DNA from: Bdellovibrionales bacterium
GTDB taxonomy: Bacteria > Bdellovibrionota > Bdellovibrionia > Bdellovibrionales > JAMPXM01
Direction: 5' to 3'
NCBI GenBank assembly: GCA_043739185.1
Contig: JAYUEN010000104.1
Span: 1-19,637, forward strand
DNA length: 19,637 bases
Position 1 is the first letter of the stretch, and every line of letters begins with the position of its first letter. Position numbers: made by a program. Shown one piece after another: positions 9,001 to 15,000 of this stretch.

Positions 9001-12000
9001 TGCTGCGATGATTGCGCCACCTCAACTGAAGAGCGATCTACTTTTTGGGTCACATTCTGCAATTTTTTTGAAAGACTAAATGCGATTGTCATCCCAAAAC
9101 ACCATAAAAACAAAATCGAAAGCAAAGCCACTAGCTGCATATTTTGCTCGGCTCGCTCGGCGCCTTCTTTAGATTCAATATTAAGCAAGCCAACCCGTCC
9201 CTCAAAGTTTTTTGAAATGGCGGCAAAGGATTCATCCATACGTTCAACTTCAGGTAGTAATTTTCTTAAAATGAGCTCGCGCACCCAACGATCTGATTCT
9301 GGCAAATTGTCTTTGTAACGGACCAAAATAGCGGCCAAAGTGGGTGCAAGCAGCGTCGATCTGTGTGAAATATCATCGAGCTGCTCTAAAGATTTAGCTT
9401 CGAGTCCAACACCTTTAAGCCGCGCGAGCTGTTGCGTGAAATCGATATAGGCATTTTCTGTTAAACTTATTCGCTTCAAACGAAAGCTCGCATCACCTTC
9501 GGCCAATAATCCCGAAGTCAAAAGTCTTACCATTTCATTCAAGCGTGTGGTTGCGGCCCCGATGGATTGCGCCTCGGGAATCTTCATCGAGATAAAACTA
9601 TTTATTGTTTTCGTTTGTTTATCTCGAATATCAAAAGCTGCAAATAATGAAATCTCGAGCGCCACTGAGCCGATCATGAGAATGATCAAAAGTTTCAATT
9701 TAAGTCCACGTAACCAACCCATGACTCGCTCCTTAAAAAGTGAAAGAATCTGCAATTCTCTTCGGCTTCATAAAGACATCGCTTAAGACCTGAAATTACT
9801 AAATTTTTACTGAGAACTCGACCCGAAATGGCGAATCGCATCCCGACCAAGGTCGCAAAAAACTGCCGAGAGTCTAGTTTTCAAAAAACAAAACAATTTA
9901 AGTGCCTAGAATCTTTGAGCTAGGTGCAAATTTAACCGATAGAAATATTATGGGTGAAGCACCGATTGATCCTTCAATCATTCAACTTTTAAAATCAAGT
10001 CATCTTTTTGGTGACGCTGATGATGCTGTATTGAATTTGGTTGCGTCGCAACTCAAAGCGTTTTCATACAAAAAAGGCGAACCCATTATTTTAGAAAATG
10101 AAATTAGCGATCAAGTATATTTTATTAAAACGGGTGCAGTCGAAATCACCAAATACCGCCCCGAACTACAGCAAGTCACGCGTGTGGCTATGCTTTTGCC
10201 GGGCTCGCACTTTTCTGAATTTTCAGTAATCAACCACAGCTATAAATCTGCCTCCGCTTTTGCTTTCGAAGATACAGAACTTTATCAAATGCTCGGTGAT
10301 ACCTTTTTAAAAATTCTTTTGAAAACGCCCGCCCTTTCCTACAACTTGGCAATGATTCTGGCTGATTTGAACTTAAATTTTTCGCAAAGCCACACCTATA
10401 TTGAGTATTTTGATCCAGCCTCAATAAGCGTGAGTTCAGAGATTGCAAGTTTTTTCCCGCCCAATCTCTGGAAGAAATTTGGTGCTTTGCCCCTTCGGTA
10501 TTATACAAACAATATTTTGTTTGCAGCGAAAGACCCTTATCGCACAGAATTCTCTCAGTTTTGTCAGACCCAGCTGGCCAAGATTCAAGTTAATGTCGTC
10601 TTGATTGGCGAAGAAGATTTTGAATTGACTGAAAAAAAATTGAAACTCCTATATGCCGGCGGTCCGAGCAAAACGAAAAAATCCATTGAAAAATTTGAAG
10701 AAGAAGATATTAAAACCTCCCTAACTAAATCTCACTATTTTGATTCGATGAATCCCCAAGTCTTTGAACAATTGGCAGGAGTTGCAGAAAAAGTAACTTA
10801 TCAAGCTGGTGAAATTATTTACTCTCCAGGAGAAGTCAGTGAAACTTTTTATTTGGTGCAATCTGGCTCTGTGGAACTCTCAAAGCAAATCAATTCAAGT
10901 TCAAATTACTGCCAACTCATTGGCATCGGACAACGCCAAAGTCTCTCAGAAGTTTCTCTACTAACCAATACTCCTCATTCACACATCGCCAGGGCTTCAC
11001 AAACTACAAATATCATTAAATTGAAAAAAAATGTCTTCATGCAGCTCTTAAAATCAGGTGCATTTTGTTTAAATGTTTCAAAGGTTTTGGCAAAACGACT
11101 TGAGTTTGTTACCAGATTCAGTGGCGTGAAATTTGATACCAATCGCGAAGCGCCAAAAATGCAAGATGCGCTTAAAATTCTCTCAAAAGAGGTAATGCTC
11201 GAGCACCAGCTTATTCCATTAAAAGTAAATAATGAAGAAGTGACTCTTGGAGTTGTCAATCCTAACAGTGAATCGATTTGCTTTGTGGCCGCCCGATACT
11301 TGAGGGGATATCGTATTAATTTAGAAGCAATCCCTTTTGAAAATTTTAAAAAGTGGATGAGCCTGGGGGAAGCAGTGATGGCCTCAAATGGTCTGCCACT
11401 GAATACGAAGAATATCTCGATGGCCAAAACAGAAGGTACTGTTTTCGAACTCAATCGAATTTTAGTTGAAGGCTATGACTCGAGAGCCAGCGATGTGCAC
11501 TTTGAACCTTCTAATGACGGCTATTGTGTGCGCTACCGAATTGACGGAGTGATGATGGAAGTGGCCAATAAAATTCCCAAAGAAATTGGCATTGAATTGG
11601 TTTCACGAGTGAAGGTCCTTAGCCAACTCGATATTGCCAACCATATGGTGCCGCAAGATGGTCAACTCAAACTAGTTGCTGGCGACACACATATCACGGC
11701 GCGAGTTTCGACCGTACCAACCAAACATGGTGAAAACGCTGTATTGAGACTCATTCGAAACCGCAGCTCCACACAGCCCTTGAGTATGCTAGTTCCTGAC
11801 ATCTATTCAATTAAAATTCTAAAAGCTATAGCCCGTGCGAAACAGGGATTGTTTTTGGTCACTGGGCCAACCGGCTCCGGAAAAACCACAACACTCTATT
11901 CGTTGATTGCAGAACTCAATCATGTAGATGTCAAAATCATATCGCTTGAAGATCCCGTAGAGCTTGAAATTCCGGGTACCACACAAATTGAAATAAATGA

Positions 12001-15000
12001 AAAATCCGGAATGAGTTTCGCAAAGGCCTTGAAGAGTACACTCAGACAAGATCCTGATGTTGTAATGGTCGGAGAAATCCGTGATGAAGAGTCTGCTAAA
12101 ATTGTTTTTGAAGCCGCCATGAGTGGGCACTTGGTCATTTCAACTCTGCATACCAATAGCTCTTTTGGAATTCGCAATCGACTTCATGATCTCGGAATTC
12201 CTGCGGGAGTAGCGGCGAGTGGAATTATTGGCGCCATGGCTCAGCGCTTGGCCCGCGCCCTTTGCAAAAAGTGCAGTCGCCTCAGACCTACTACCGCAAT
12301 CGAAAAAGAATTTTTCGCAAAACGTCTTGGTCCGAATCAGGTCCCTTTAGAATTGAAGGCGGCGGTTGGATGCTCCGCCTGCAATGAGACTGGCTATCTA
12401 GGTCGAATTCCAATAATTGAAATCTGGAAGAAGACCCGAGAAATTGAAGAACTCATTTCAAGCAATGCAAAAACCGAAGACCTAATTCATGCAGCAAAAA
12501 AGTCAGGCTATATCAGCATTGAAGATTTTGGCCTAAAAATGGTTCTGTGCGGCCTCACCAGCATTGAAGAGGCCGAGCGCGTGACTGCCGGATATACTTA
12601 AGGCTGATCCTTCGGTGATAAACAAATTCCGCTGAGCTTTCCATCGTGAGTTTCGAGAAAACCCCGCAAACCTCCACCCAAATAAACCAGAGAAAAGTTA
12701 TAGTGAGCACTCTTATACTGACTGGCATCGATGCCCATAAAACTTCTTGTTAAAAGCTCGTAGGTAAAAAGCGGATTTGGCACCACCGCTCCGGTTCGAA
12801 CGAAAAGCTCTTTTGTCCCGCTCAAGAAATTTGTCATCGAAACAACTGCGTATTGAGCTCCCACCAAAATATTGCCATCTTCACTCTTCATTGGTCCACA
12901 ATTCACCAAGACATTCTCTGCCCTTGAAAAGCTGGGCAAAGCAACGGCAGTAAACATTATCGCAATAAGAAAATTTTTCATATGCTCTCCCTTTTTTTTT
13001 AAAAAAACCAGTAGAGAAAAAGACTATATTTAGACGTTCCGTAACGCCCCTTTTCTACAGAAGTTTGTTCTTTCACACAATTCATAACGCCATTAAATTT
13101 GGGTTAAGGACTTATACCTAAACAAGTGGCATAATTGAGCACTGTGGATTTTGAATATGCTTTACATTGCCAGGGCGATTACGGCCTGTTGTATTTCTTT
13201 CGTATATGCAAAAAACTCAATAGCAGATTTTAATGGAATCCAAAAGGTCCCATGATGGTAGTCAGCATCCGATACAGGTTTTGGATCGTGATATTCTTCG
13301 GCCAGAATTCCTCGGTAAAAAAAAGTTTTACAAGAATATTGAACTTGGTCCCAGTGATGTGAGTACGACTTAACGACTTCTGAATTTGGATCAATGATTA
13401 AGCGATAACTAGTCTCTTCAAGAGCCTCTCGCCGGGCGCACGCCCATGGCTTTTCGCCCGCCTCAATTTTCCCACCCGGCAAAAACCAGTACACTTGCTT
13501 TGACGAGGGATCAACGCCTTTAAACACCAGTAATTTATCTTGATATAGGCAAACAACTGAGGCTCTTTCTCGATATGCTTTTTTCATCTCTTAAACTCGT
13601 GATTGGATAGTTCTCATTAGTAGGCCTGTTCCTTTTTGTCTGTATTCAATGGAACGATATTATTCCAAAACCTAGACCAGGTCACTCCCTAGAATCTTGA
13701 CAAAAAAATGGCTCAAGCTTTCAATGAATCTGACTGTTTATTTGCCAATTAATTATTAACAGGGGGGCTTTCTTGAAAAAAATAGTTTTAGCTTTAATGC
13801 TTGTAACTTCCTATGCCTTTGCGCAAGGTCCAAGCGATCAAATTTTATCTGGTGATGTCATTTGCACAGACGGACAATCGAATCTCTCAGACCAAAGCTT
13901 TTCGCCAAATGCACAACCTGATGCACAAATAATTGAGGCACCTCGCCCAGGTCCGCAACCAGGTCCTTGGCCACATCCCCAACCAGCGCCACATCCTCAA
14001 CCACCACCTCATCCGCAACCGCCACCACATCCGCAACCGCCACCACATCCAGGACCATGGCCACATCCTCAGCCGCCACCGGTTCCGCATCCTGGTCCGT
14101 GGCCACAGCCGCATCCAGGACCATGGCCACAACCAAGACCTTATCCACATCCATATCCTGTGCCAGGACCATGGCCAAGACCTTATCCACATCCAATTCC
14201 GCCGCCAATTCCTCAGCCAATTGGGATTGTCACGATCTATCCAAATTTCAATTGTCTCGATAATTTGATGCCAGAAAATGCTTTTAACTTAGCAATGGAT
14301 GCAGCCAATTGTGATTCAATGAATCCGGACAGAATTGAATTAGATGCCTATTTGTGTTTTGAAGTAGAGCAATCTATTGATCGTGTGAAGGCCAATGAAA
14401 TCATGAGCCTTGCTACCACGCCAATGGGCTTAGATGACATACGAACTATTGAGCATGCTTCTAGTATTTTGTATTATCGCTGCGAATTATAAAAGAATCT
14501 AATTTCGAAAGGCGGAGGTCAGTAGCCTCCGCCTTTTTTTTGAAAAAAAACCAATGATAGAAAGCTCAAACTAGAATGAAAGCAATGGCCATTTTCCTCT
14601 TATTATTCAGCTCAGTCTCTGCACTTGCTCATAAAGAAAATGCCGGATGTAAAAAAATTCATGAAGCTTGTAGCGAAGCAAATCAAACCGGCAAAGATGC
14701 CTGGCACTGCGCCCACAATCTTATGAAGGGCGAAAAGGTCGAGGGAATAAACAAAGATTTAATTGAAGCGATCAAGGATTGTAAGAGCGCAAAAGGACTA
14801 CATCATCAAAAAGAAACCGCAGCTGATTCAGCCGCGGCTCATGATTCAAAATCAGAATCTAAATAATTACATGATATGAACTGGAAATGAGCAATACAAA
14901 GGTAGACTTGGCTCACTTGCTAATTGCAAATTAAGTTTTGCTTTTGAGTTTGGAACGAAAGTGAATACATTTGAATTTTGTGGTTGTGGGTTCAATTGCT

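Follow-up and report, generated by a model that had tools for sequence, protein, structure and literature searches.

A PilB/GspE-type ATPase of Bdellovibrionota with two cyclic-nucleotide-binding domains in the apparent place of the c-di-GMP-binding bundle

In many PilB proteins the ND1 domain is preceded by a four-helix subdomain that binds c-di-GMP, and both ND1 and the tetra-cysteine zinc motif are absent in PilT. The surface that binds PilM/GspL is provided by ND1 (PMC8389850). The accessible part of a 2024 review (PMC11656802) describes cAMP as influencing pili at the transcriptional level (Vfr) and ascribes direct binding to the PilB motor to c-di-GMP. Fusions of other sensors to PilB are already known, and those tabulated as architectures only in PMC5013675 include GAF-MshEN-T2SSE, REC-MshEN-T2SSE and MshEN-T2SSE-cNMPbind (Desulfotalea DP2226), the last with a C-terminal cNMP domain. 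In Bdellovibrio, the cNMP-domain enzyme Bd1971 is activated by cAMP and cGMP (PMC6717892). What appears to be new in the gene described here and in its relatives with a single repeat is an N-terminal cNMP swap, no description of which was found in a literature search covering mostly non-subscription papers and the available portion of the PMC5013675 supplement. Judged from its sequence, the protein would be an additional pilus motor, carried by relatives of the predatory Bdellovibrio, with a pair of cNMP domains of altered pocket in exchange for the usual c-di-GMP switch.

The window (the whole stretch of DNA that was analysed, 19,637 nucleotides) contains the following features of this gene, for which residues are numbered from the ATG at 9950, i.e. 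16 lower than in the genome-wide survey's note.

9950..12601, + strand: whole gene, 883 aa from ATG (database gene call, closest relatives)
9971..10390, + strand: cNMP-binding domain 1 with C-helix, residues 8-147 (Pfam, AF2 model)
10211..10252, + strand: phosphate-binding cassette 1, residues 88-101 (cassette alignment, Bd1971 match)
10400..10657, + strand: first ND1/MshEN_C alpha/beta subdomain, residues 151-236, not preceded by an MshEN_N bundle (Pfam, AF2 model, gap count)
10706..11119, + strand: cNMP-binding domain 2 with C-helix, residues 253-390 (Pfam, AF2 model)
10943..10984, + strand: phosphate-binding cassette 2, residues 332-345 (cassette alignment)
11126..11380, + strand: ND1/MshEN_C subdomain 2, residues 393-477 (Pfam, hhalign 96%, family profile)
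11414..11764, + strand: N2 domain with Arg fingers R585 and R600 (sequence conservation)
11765..12601, + strand: ATPase C-terminal domain (Pfam, sequence conservation)
11864-11887, + strand: Walker A (sequence conservation)
within 11765..12601, + strand: Asp box E667-E671, Walker B up to E709, His box H727/H734 (sequence conservation)
12263-12382, + strand: zinc cysteines C772/C775/C808/C811 (sequence conservation)

The ORF at 9902-12601 (+ strand) is intact; read from the in-frame GTG at 9902 it encodes 899 aa, and the ATG at 9950, which is shared by the database gene call and the three closest relatives (882-883 aa), is the likely start codon. Over the ORF, two DNA contigs show 0 differences and 0 gaps; both come from a single study, which may be the source of this DNA, and are not independent. 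Pfam finds cNMP_binding twice, MshEN in two stretches and T2SSE, which bears out the reading frame and domain build reported in the survey's note, and the gene product is an intact PilB/GspE-type ATPase behind two repeats, each of a cNMP domain and an ND1 domain. The 21 relatives that the note credited with all three families are found again (21 of 27 matches), this number including the query itself and one truncated record. However, the wider family is larger than had been claimed, since relatives with a single repeat, commonest in Myxococcota, account for about 1,870 members in the ESM Atlas. Promoter and terminator scans around the gene stayed at chance level, and no plasmid record covering 80% of the protein was present among the best 5000 matches. 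A look for expression listed no RNA record with the gene.

By its sequence, the catalytic core is intact. Walker A, the Asp box, the His box and the zinc cysteines, whose retention had been noted earlier, and also Walker B and both Arg fingers, are conserved at 86-100% in 49 non-redundant two-repeat proteins, the four cysteines in 100%. Only 5 positions that are conserved in ordinary PilB/GspE are altered, each mildly; the motif PQDGR has become PQDGQ in 76% of the two-repeat proteins, and the query scores below the equivalog cut-offs for PilB (420 vs 676 bits, TIGR02538) and GspE (396 vs 630 bits, TIGR02533).

The survey's note had described two MshEN domains, the second read from an alignment and not from Pfam. 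The second stretch rests on more than the alignment, because by itself it clears the Pfam cut-off (26.8 vs 23.1 bits) and the profiles of the two ND1 subdomains align with 96% probability (hhalign). However, it is the MshEN_C (ND1) half that is present twice, whereas the MshEN_N half is absent in both. The median distance from the cNMP domain to ND1 is 3-4 aa, and distances above 45 aa occur in 0/60 two-repeat and 1/120 one-repeat proteins; due to this short gap (median 3 aa) there is no room for the four-helix MshEN_N subdomain, and in the AF2 model of residues 1-477 the helical bundle is missing between the barrel and ND1. A relaxed pattern of the 24-residue RLGxxL motif, taken from PMC5013675, matched 0/63 two-repeat and 0/133 one-repeat proteins, compared with 24/91 ATPases without a cNMP domain, among them two paralogs from the same genome; a looser half-motif is matched by 12/63 two-repeat proteins, but not by the query. 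Because both the binding bundle and the motif are absent, it will be incorrect to interpret "MshEN" in this protein as indicating c-di-GMP sensing; in sequence terms it is the cNMP domain that occupies the place of the c-di-GMP-binding bundle. Acidic helix residues that are retained by ordinary PilB (Asp 62%) and by one-repeat forms (74-100%) have been lost from both ND1 copies, the second copy carries a clade-specific patch (R449-Y450-L451..Y454-R455), and in one small two-repeat subclade (L038, P0054, P0077) this second copy is absent. With ND1-1 alone as the query no PDB sequence match was obtained, and the fold searches with the model were filled by cNMP domains, so that ND1 was barely probed there.

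The barrel, hinge and C-helix of a cNMP domain are present according to Pfam, the AF2 model and fold searches, and domain 1 is the better conserved of the two (mean pairwise identity 54% vs 40%). However, both cassettes of the query lack the Gly and the phosphate-binding Arg of canonical cAMP/cGMP domains. In cassette 1, which matches the Bd1971 cassette printed in PMC6717892 over 14 residues without gaps, S89 replaces Gly, S92 replaces Ala and K99 replaces Arg, while E90 and S100 are retained; in cassette 2, S333 replaces Gly and H343 replaces Arg, while E334 is retained. The replacement of the Arg, which the survey's note had pointed out, thus applies to both domains. Across the 49 two-repeat proteins, repeat 1 has Ser/Ala at the cassette Gly in 93% (Gly kept in 6%) and Lys/His at the Arg in 84% (Arg kept in 14%), and its capping Arg (CRP R123 position) is lost (L140 in the query; Leu/Met/Ile in 85%). 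In repeat 2, Gly is found in 55% (CRP G71 position), His in 59% at the Arg (CRP R82 position), and the capping Arg, R383 in the query, in 63%. The cassette Glu (CRP E72 position) is E90 in 98% of repeat-1 domains and E334 in 69% (with Asp in 16%) of repeat-2 domains. The repeat-1 domains form a long-branch clade with support of 1.0, in which S92 (96%), S102 (98%), E65 (94%) and R78 (84%) are conserved along with E90. The positions of S92 and K99 correspond to A202 and R209 of trypanosome PKA, where changes turn a cAMP-binding site into one for nucleosides (PMC10959531). In contrast, the pockets of 36 non-redundant one-repeat proteins have Gly in 100%, Glu in 91-92%, Arg in 83-92% and the capping Arg in 85-91%, and with Ser/Thr they present the whole canonical cAMP/cGMP set. 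Based on these sequences, neither pocket of the two-repeat protein is canonical, whereas the one-repeat family looks suited to direct control of pilus motors by cAMP or cGMP. The direct cyclic-nucleotide control earlier proposed for this gene therefore fits the one-repeat family much better; for the two-repeat protein, control by plain cAMP is open to doubt, and it more likely responds to a changed ligand.

The two forms are placed apart in the trees, the stem branch of the two-repeat clade being long (0.71), although a single clade of both was not rejected in an AU test (p 0.065; 25 rows, LG+G4). Two origins of the one-repeat forms, suggested by their split in FastTree, were discarded, as IQ-TREE under a mixture model recovered the 14 sampled forms as a single clade (98). 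Within the phylum the two-repeat clade is patchy (8/400 genomes), and its records come from both Bdellovibrionales and Bacteriovoracaceae, in agreement with the survey; a one-repeat query in the same 400 genomes matched only itself and one two-repeat gene. Since one remnant and one fragment occur among close relatives, the two-repeat gene can be lost. An ordinary PilB is also present in 18/18 carrier genomes, and, with carriers only counted, 17/18 have a PilM-family gene and 17/18 at least one class III cyclase, of which the query's genome has 5 matches. This genome also encodes three candidate stators, two PilM proteins (on C116 and C270) and a PilM-family protein belonging to the T2SS cluster (on C155). 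The gene lies outside pilus operons, as had been noted: pilus genes were absent from 81 neighbours at 16 loci and from the 12 other proteins of the window, while the same scan does detect pil/gsp genes beside the three ordinary paralogs of this genome. Due to this, nothing ties the two-repeat gene to a particular machine. An all-against-all comparison gave generic families only and no conserved neighbourhood; two of the 15 two-repeat loci (only such loci being counted), L037 and L040, have Hpt-like and REC genes next to them, with an HD-type gene in addition at L037. For one-repeat loci the degenerate scanning pattern was too loose, with 2 true members among the 80 matches listed, and no pilus gene was seen among the 6 neighbours of the one flanked member.

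Two predictors agree that the repeats pack into one rigid CRP-like pseudo-dimer. The AF2 model of residues 1-477 (pLDDT 90.4, pTM 0.85) shows a parallel pair of C-helices as in CRP-like sensor dimers, and the predicted interaction of repeat 1 with repeat 2 has an ipSAE of 0.84 (best control 0.00), on a mark reached by 116/157 solved and 2/215 mismatched pairs, with at least 82% contact agreement between runs and partner pLDDT of at least 85; cAMP was included in this prediction without being scored. The best-defined predicted contacts join residues 133-141 to 373-381 and cassette residues 91/94/95 to 377/378/381, hairpin residue 320 touches ND1 residue 215, and the dimer-face residues L137/L380 and A138/A381 are retained across all groups. 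However, the partners in this pseudo-dimer belong to the same chain and look like CRP dimers of solved structure, so that the two predictors may both be reproducing the latter. A composite site formed by a Bd1971-type helix swap, with R383 capping the repeat-1 cassette, was dropped because the predicted contacts follow ordinary CRP topology.

Our preferred reading, to which we assign a probability of roughly 0.45, is that the gene encodes an accessory ATPase of the extension type (PilB/GspE), stand-alone and with a remodelled control module at its N-terminus, which would respond to a ligand that is likely not plain cAMP and would switch docking via ND1. As its sequence shows, a CRP-type cNMP domain has replaced the four-helix c-di-GMP subdomain, and the cNMP-ND1 unit is duplicated. 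In the predicted arrangement the C-helices join both cNMP domains of a single chain into a CRP-like pair, the ND1 domains lie at the output end, and the beta-hairpin of repeat 2 is placed against ND1 of repeat 1. Binding of a small ligand in pocket 1 would shift the cassette, C-helices and hairpins and reposition ND1, and this may allow the hexamer to dock on the PilM ring of the cell's type IV pilus machine or keep it from doing so; there the protein would compete with ordinary PilB. The conserved changes of pocket 1 concern positions at which the ligand specificity of other cNMP domains is switched; high-affinity binding of plain cAMP has probably been given up by this pocket, and pocket 2 probably binds weakly or is dead. 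The one-repeat relatives would use the same wiring with cAMP/cGMP, their sensors being paired between neighbouring subunits.

It is unlikely, in our view, that the two-repeat motor is itself switched by cAMP/cGMP, with lower affinity, through its Lys/His-substituted pocket. Such a switch would be consistent with the retention in repeat 1 of E90 and S100 (84%), with a basic residue or His at the Arg position in 98%, with the binding of Rp-cAMPS by PKA R209K (24-476 uM; PMC8447923 section 8), with the cyclases of the carrier genomes and with the behaviour of Bd1971. However, repeat 1 loses the Gly, the Arg and the capping Arg together, and the one-repeat relatives retain all three. We likewise give a low probability to cNMP domains that bind no small ligand and serve as a rigid scaffold, or as a docking site for a response regulator or Hpt-type protein, the repeat-1 conservation then reflecting a protein interface. 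The departure of both pockets from consensus, the repeat-1-specific residues outside the cassette (P45, L48, E49, E51, E65 and R78; 82-94%) and the Hpt-like, REC and HD-type genes at L037 and L040 accord with such a role, but the conservation at 84-98% of E90, S92, S100 and a basic residue or His at 99 would suit a ligand site. Loss of the pilus assembly role, leaving a repurposed or decoy ATPase on another machine, a poison of mixed PilB hexamers or a nucleotide-state signal, would agree with the absence of adjoining pilus genes, the remodelled ND1 surface, the missing ND1-2 of one subclade, the low equivalog scores, PQDGQ and the long stem, but is quite improbable given the retained catalytic residues, Arg fingers and zinc cysteines and the several extension ATPases per genome discussed in the consulted part of PMC11656802.

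A canonical cAMP/cGMP pocket at the site of the c-di-GMP module would add a direct second route of motor control, and the one-repeat family would offer a natural tool for understanding how ligand binding in the N1 domain licenses PilB. The two-repeat form would add to this a conserved pocket with a non-canonical cassette in relatives of predatory bacteria. A broader joint reading, which we regard as speculative and rather unlikely as a whole, is that a widespread class of pilus extension motors in Myxococcota, syntrophic deltaproteobacteria and Bdellovibrionota is gated directly by cAMP/cGMP, through a CRP-like sensor in exchange for the c-di-GMP module. In one Bdellovibrionota clade this sensor would have been duplicated to give a pseudo-dimer within a single chain; its pocket 1 would respond to another signal, such as a nucleoside, a metabolite or a non-canonical cyclic nucleotide, perhaps originating from prey, and would bring the spare motor onto the pilus.

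In comparison with known systems, the two-repeat protein shares with the MshEN extension ATPases V. cholerae MshE and M. xanthus PilB the ND1-N2-CTD core, the zinc cysteines and a small-molecule sensor directly ahead of ND1, and its family profile aligns unbroken with residues 82-578 of Geobacter PilB. However, MshEN-type PilB/MshE/GspE have the MshEN_N bundle and its motif, whereas the protein described here has a cNMP domain and is encoded by an orphan gene. T. thermophilus PilF, the best PDB sequence match, into which the profile aligns from its ND1, and D. geothermalis PilB also place repeated sensor and ND1 units before one ATPase (PMC5013675, Supplementary Table 4, as far as available), but their repeats are MshEN, while those reported here are cNMP-ND1 with sensors predicted to pair in a CRP-like manner. 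According to the architectures in that source, DP2226 likewise combines a PilB-type ATPase with a cNMP domain, which is C-terminal and additional to MshEN, whereas in the two-repeat protein it is N-terminal, duplicated and replaces MshEN_N. The barrel and long C-helix superpose on CRP, GlxR, Clr and Bd1971 (Z 17.7-18.3, rmsd 1.6-2.2 A, 138-144 residues), and the C-helix dimer of CRP-type sensors is likewise predicted; however, the pairing is intrachain, the output is ND1 instead of HTH or EAL, neither cassette is canonical, and the predicted contacts have CRP topology, unlike the helix swap of Bd1971. In the nucleoside-binding PKA-R of trypanosomatids, A202 and R209 are likewise sites of conserved substitution, but in the two-repeat protein A202 is replaced by Ser and not Glu, R209 by Lys/His, and the cassette Gly is altered as well.

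The two-repeat architecture that the genome-wide survey's note had reported, in which a cNMP domain followed by an ND1 domain occurs twice ahead of a PilB/GspE-type ATPase, is real. Pfam finds cNMP twice, MshEN in two stretches and T2SSE in the product of an unbroken reading frame, and the gene is spanned by two DNA contigs with zero differences (both from one study, possibly the source of the window DNA). The second MshEN stretch, which that note knew from an alignment only, clears the Pfam cut-off by itself, and a profile-profile alignment of both stretches gives 96%. Because the database gene call and the three nearest relatives start at the ATG at 9950 (882-883 aa), residues are numbered from there, i.e. 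the earlier numbering minus 16. The features of the window are:

8040-9755, minus strand: chemoreceptor gene (MCPsignal), divergent from the gene under study across 194 bp
9902-12601, plus strand: the gene under study
11651-11668, within this gene: PQDGR motif of N2 (residues 568-573)
13773-14492, plus strand: gene for a protein of 239 aa that starts like a signal peptide and contains a long Pro/His/Gln-rich repeat run; no Pfam family scores above cut-off

Across 49 two-repeat proteins, a set at ≤75% identity, Walker A, the Asp box, Walker B, the His box, the Arg fingers R585/R600 and the four Zn cysteines are 86-100% conserved, and the catalytic core is, judged by these motifs, whole; the query scores under both the PilB and the GspE equivalog cut-offs. 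The PQDGR motif ends in Gln (PQDGQ) in 76% of two-repeat proteins, the final Arg being kept in 91-100% of one-repeat proteins and 72% of ordinary ATPases.

It will, however, be incorrect to interpret the MshEN stretches, as they were labelled earlier, as complete MshEN domains. They correspond to MshEN_C, viz. ND1, described in PMC8389850 as the surface binding GspL/PilM, and are without the c-di-GMP bundle or motif. Each cNMP C-helix of the query continues directly into ND1, and in proteins with an ND1 match after the last cNMP domain a median of 3-4 residues lies between the two, with more than 45 in 0/60 two-repeat and 1/120 one-repeat proteins. No MshEN_N-type bundle is seen in the AF2 models (full-length and residues 1-477), and the c-di-GMP motif was found in 0/63 two-repeat and 0/133 one-repeat proteins. 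Of the ATPases that lack cNMP, 24 of 91 have it, including two paralogs of the source genome. From the short gaps, the bundle-free models and the absence of the motif, we conclude that the cNMP domain occupies the place of the c-di-GMP module of many PilBs.

The AF2 model of residues 1-477 (50 sequences; pLDDT 90.4) has a pTM of 0.85, compared with 0.48 for the full-length protein; so high a value over four domains suggests that they make up a rigid unit. The barrel and C-helix of each repeat align with CRP-family chains at Z ~18 (rmsd 1.6-2.2 Å over 138-144 residues). Predicted as separate chains, with cAMP included but not scored, repeats 1 and 2 give an ipSAE of 0.84 (best control 0.00), with at least 82% contact agreement between runs and partner pLDDT of at least 85. 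Among solved pairs 116 of 157 attain the mark so passed, and among mismatched pairs 2 of 215; these rates apply here only roughly, and the pass may reflect likeness alone, because each repeat is one half of a single chain and solved CRP dimers exist. The best-defined predicted contacts are those of C-helix residues 133-141 with 373-381, of cassette 1 with helix 2, and of the repeat-2 hairpin with ND1 of repeat 1. The prediction is thus of a CRP-like pair formed within one chain, with ND1 at the output end.

PMC6717892 supplied the Bd1971 cassette and its CRP equivalents against which the pockets were read; the column counts come from the family alignment. In repeat 1 the cassette Glu (98%) and Ser (84%) persist, Gly is replaced by Ser/Ala (93%) and Ala by Ser (96%), the Arg position holds Lys, His or Arg (45, 39 and 14%), and the capping Arg is missing; in repeat 2, His replaces Arg in 59% and the capping Arg is kept in 63%. 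In these residues the query does not fit the canonical cAMP-receptor signature. The cNMP domain of repeat 1 is better conserved than that of repeat 2 (mean identity 54% vs 40%), which, together with its long branch (support 1.0), suggests that its role was altered and then fixed. In trypanosome PKA, substitutions at A202 and R209 are described as switching the ligand to nucleosides (PMC10959531). PKA R209K still binds Rp-cAMPS at 24-476 uM (PMC8447923), which counts against a full ligand switch and in favor of plain cAMP/cGMP control of the two-repeat protein; this explanation is nevertheless unlikely, as the cassette Gly and Arg of repeat 1 are replaced and its capping Arg is gone. That the cNMP domains are a ligand-free scaffold is about equally improbable. 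Bd1971 of Bdellovibrio is activated by both cAMP and cGMP (PMC6717892), and five matches to class III cyclases occur in the source genome. On its T2SS-cluster contig (C155), ~8 kb separates a reading frame for two cNMP domains from a gene for a class III cyclase (87000-87614 and 95952-96407).

The family was earlier described as small, overlooking a further, larger family of one-repeat relatives. A profile search over 1.84 billion representatives gave ~650-735-aa proteins aligning from profile position ~250, and all 22 of these that were scanned (35 proteins overall) have cNMP-MshEN-T2SSE. The three families occur together in 102 of the best 120 hits to one one-repeat protein (names including Syntrophorhabdaceae and Syntrophus), another cluster carries the name Myxococcales bacterium, and ESM Atlas clusters with these families (1307, 339, 169 and 57 members, cNMP being present in 76-97% of members) are commonest in Myxococcota. 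The pocket is canonical in 36 non-redundant members (Gly 100%, Glu 91-92%, Arg 83-92%, capping Arg 85-91%), and the C-helix dimer face and the acidic ND1 helix of ordinary PilB are retained. By these residues the one-repeat relatives fit the cAMP-receptor signature, so that direct cyclic-nucleotide control, proposed earlier for the query, finds its better test in them. In an ATPase-domain tree (49/176 rows), two-repeat and one-repeat proteins form separate clades (100 and 98); their single origin is neither demonstrated nor rejected by the AU test (p-AU 0.065, 25 rows). No pilus genes were found among the scanned neighbours at two one-repeat loci (L039, L105). Among other homologs, P0088 (812 aa) has two cNMP domains in direct tandem, then MshEN and T2SSE, the Arg of its second pocket being canonical. 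Thirteen ~1000-aa proteins with several PilB-profile matches (P0056, P0060, P0061, P0063, P0064, P0067-P0070, P0072-P0074, P0078) form one clade and look like tandem double-ATPase PilBs, because P0056, the one scanned, holds two T2SSE stretches.

The N-terminal half was matched in 11 of 60 relatives: eight with a whole or contig-cut gene (one with two copies), one frameshifted remnant, one fragment and one unrelated short cNMP protein. Of the decayed copies (L043:8287-8976 and L010:1171-1911), one is frameshifted and mostly deleted and the other covers residues 200-443. In a phylum survey of 400 genomes, with four candidates scored per genome, the two-repeat gene occurred in 8 and the one-repeat gene in 1; seven of eight named loci are genuine (six Bdellovibrionales, one Bacteriovoracaceae by title). 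All 18 carriers tested also have an ordinary PilB, 17 have a PilM-family gene and 17 a cyclase, the last two being counts taken in carriers alone. The position outside pilus operons, noted earlier, holds more widely, with 0/81 neighbours at 16 loci (several cut by contig ends) being pilus/T2SS genes, and the three ordinary paralogs of the source genome belong to gsp, pilB-pilT-pilC and pilM-pilN-secretin clusters. Its contig C14 (1-8043) has a conjugation-type cluster with TraD-, TraF-, TraE- and TrbI-like matches and a 397-aa PilB-like ATPase without N1 domain (L048). The chemoreceptor gene start recurs upstream in L003, of the same genus. At one of 15 loci a cyclic-nucleotide-gated-type channel gene (L033:10484-11791; canonical cassette, TVGYG filter) lies directly downstream of the two-repeat gene on the same strand. 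At L037:4698-10746 and L040:6457-9911, two-repeat genes stand between Hpt-like and receiver-domain genes, an arrangement compared without a background rate; L040 resembles an Hpt-ATPase-REC run and L037 additionally has an HD-domain gene.

Domain swap, duplication, intact motor core, altered pockets and orphan position are established at the sequence level. The whole reading, to which we give a probability of roughly 0.45, is that of an accessory PilB-type motor gated by a ligand via [cNMP-ND1]x2 and docking on PilM. If a ligand enters pocket 1, then cassette, helices and hairpins would move and reposition ND1, whose position would govern docking on PilM, and a spare motor, assumed from the PilB/GspE family to form a hexamer, would be recruited by a signal other than c-di-GMP. 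However, the residues of the acidic ND1 helix, which we take to be the GspL-binding helix, are lost from both ND1 copies of two-repeat proteins, an RYLxxYR patch is gained in repeat-2 ND1 (67-86%), and a three-member subclade (L038:7723-10254, P0054, P0077) lacks the second ND1, all of which argue against docking in the usual manner. A role outside pili is less probable than this reading, plain cAMP/cGMP control or a ligand-free scaffold.

With regard to the putative ligand-gated motor, our literature search, which covered result listings and extended to few subscription papers and not to all supplements, found no paper on this architecture, and the available portions of PMC13584747, PMC12943098 and bioRxiv 10.1101/397794 do not mention it. 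Its domain string is already visible in automatic annotation. In the reviewed part of PMC11656802, cAMP acts on pili via transcription. Supplementary Table 4 of PMC5013675, which refers to Pfam for more, lists MshEN-T2SSE-cNMPbind, GAF- and REC-MshEN-T2SSE and tandem (MshEN)n-T2SSE, and has no entry for an N-terminal cNMP form. Sensor-PilB fusions in general are thus already tabulated, and it is the N-terminal cNMP swap into a PilB-type ATPase that appears to be new: the tabulated cNMP domain is C-terminal, whereas that of the query is N-terminal, in place of the c-di-GMP module. In its putative working the query is like a ligand-gated PilB and unlike an MshEN c-di-GMP receptor.
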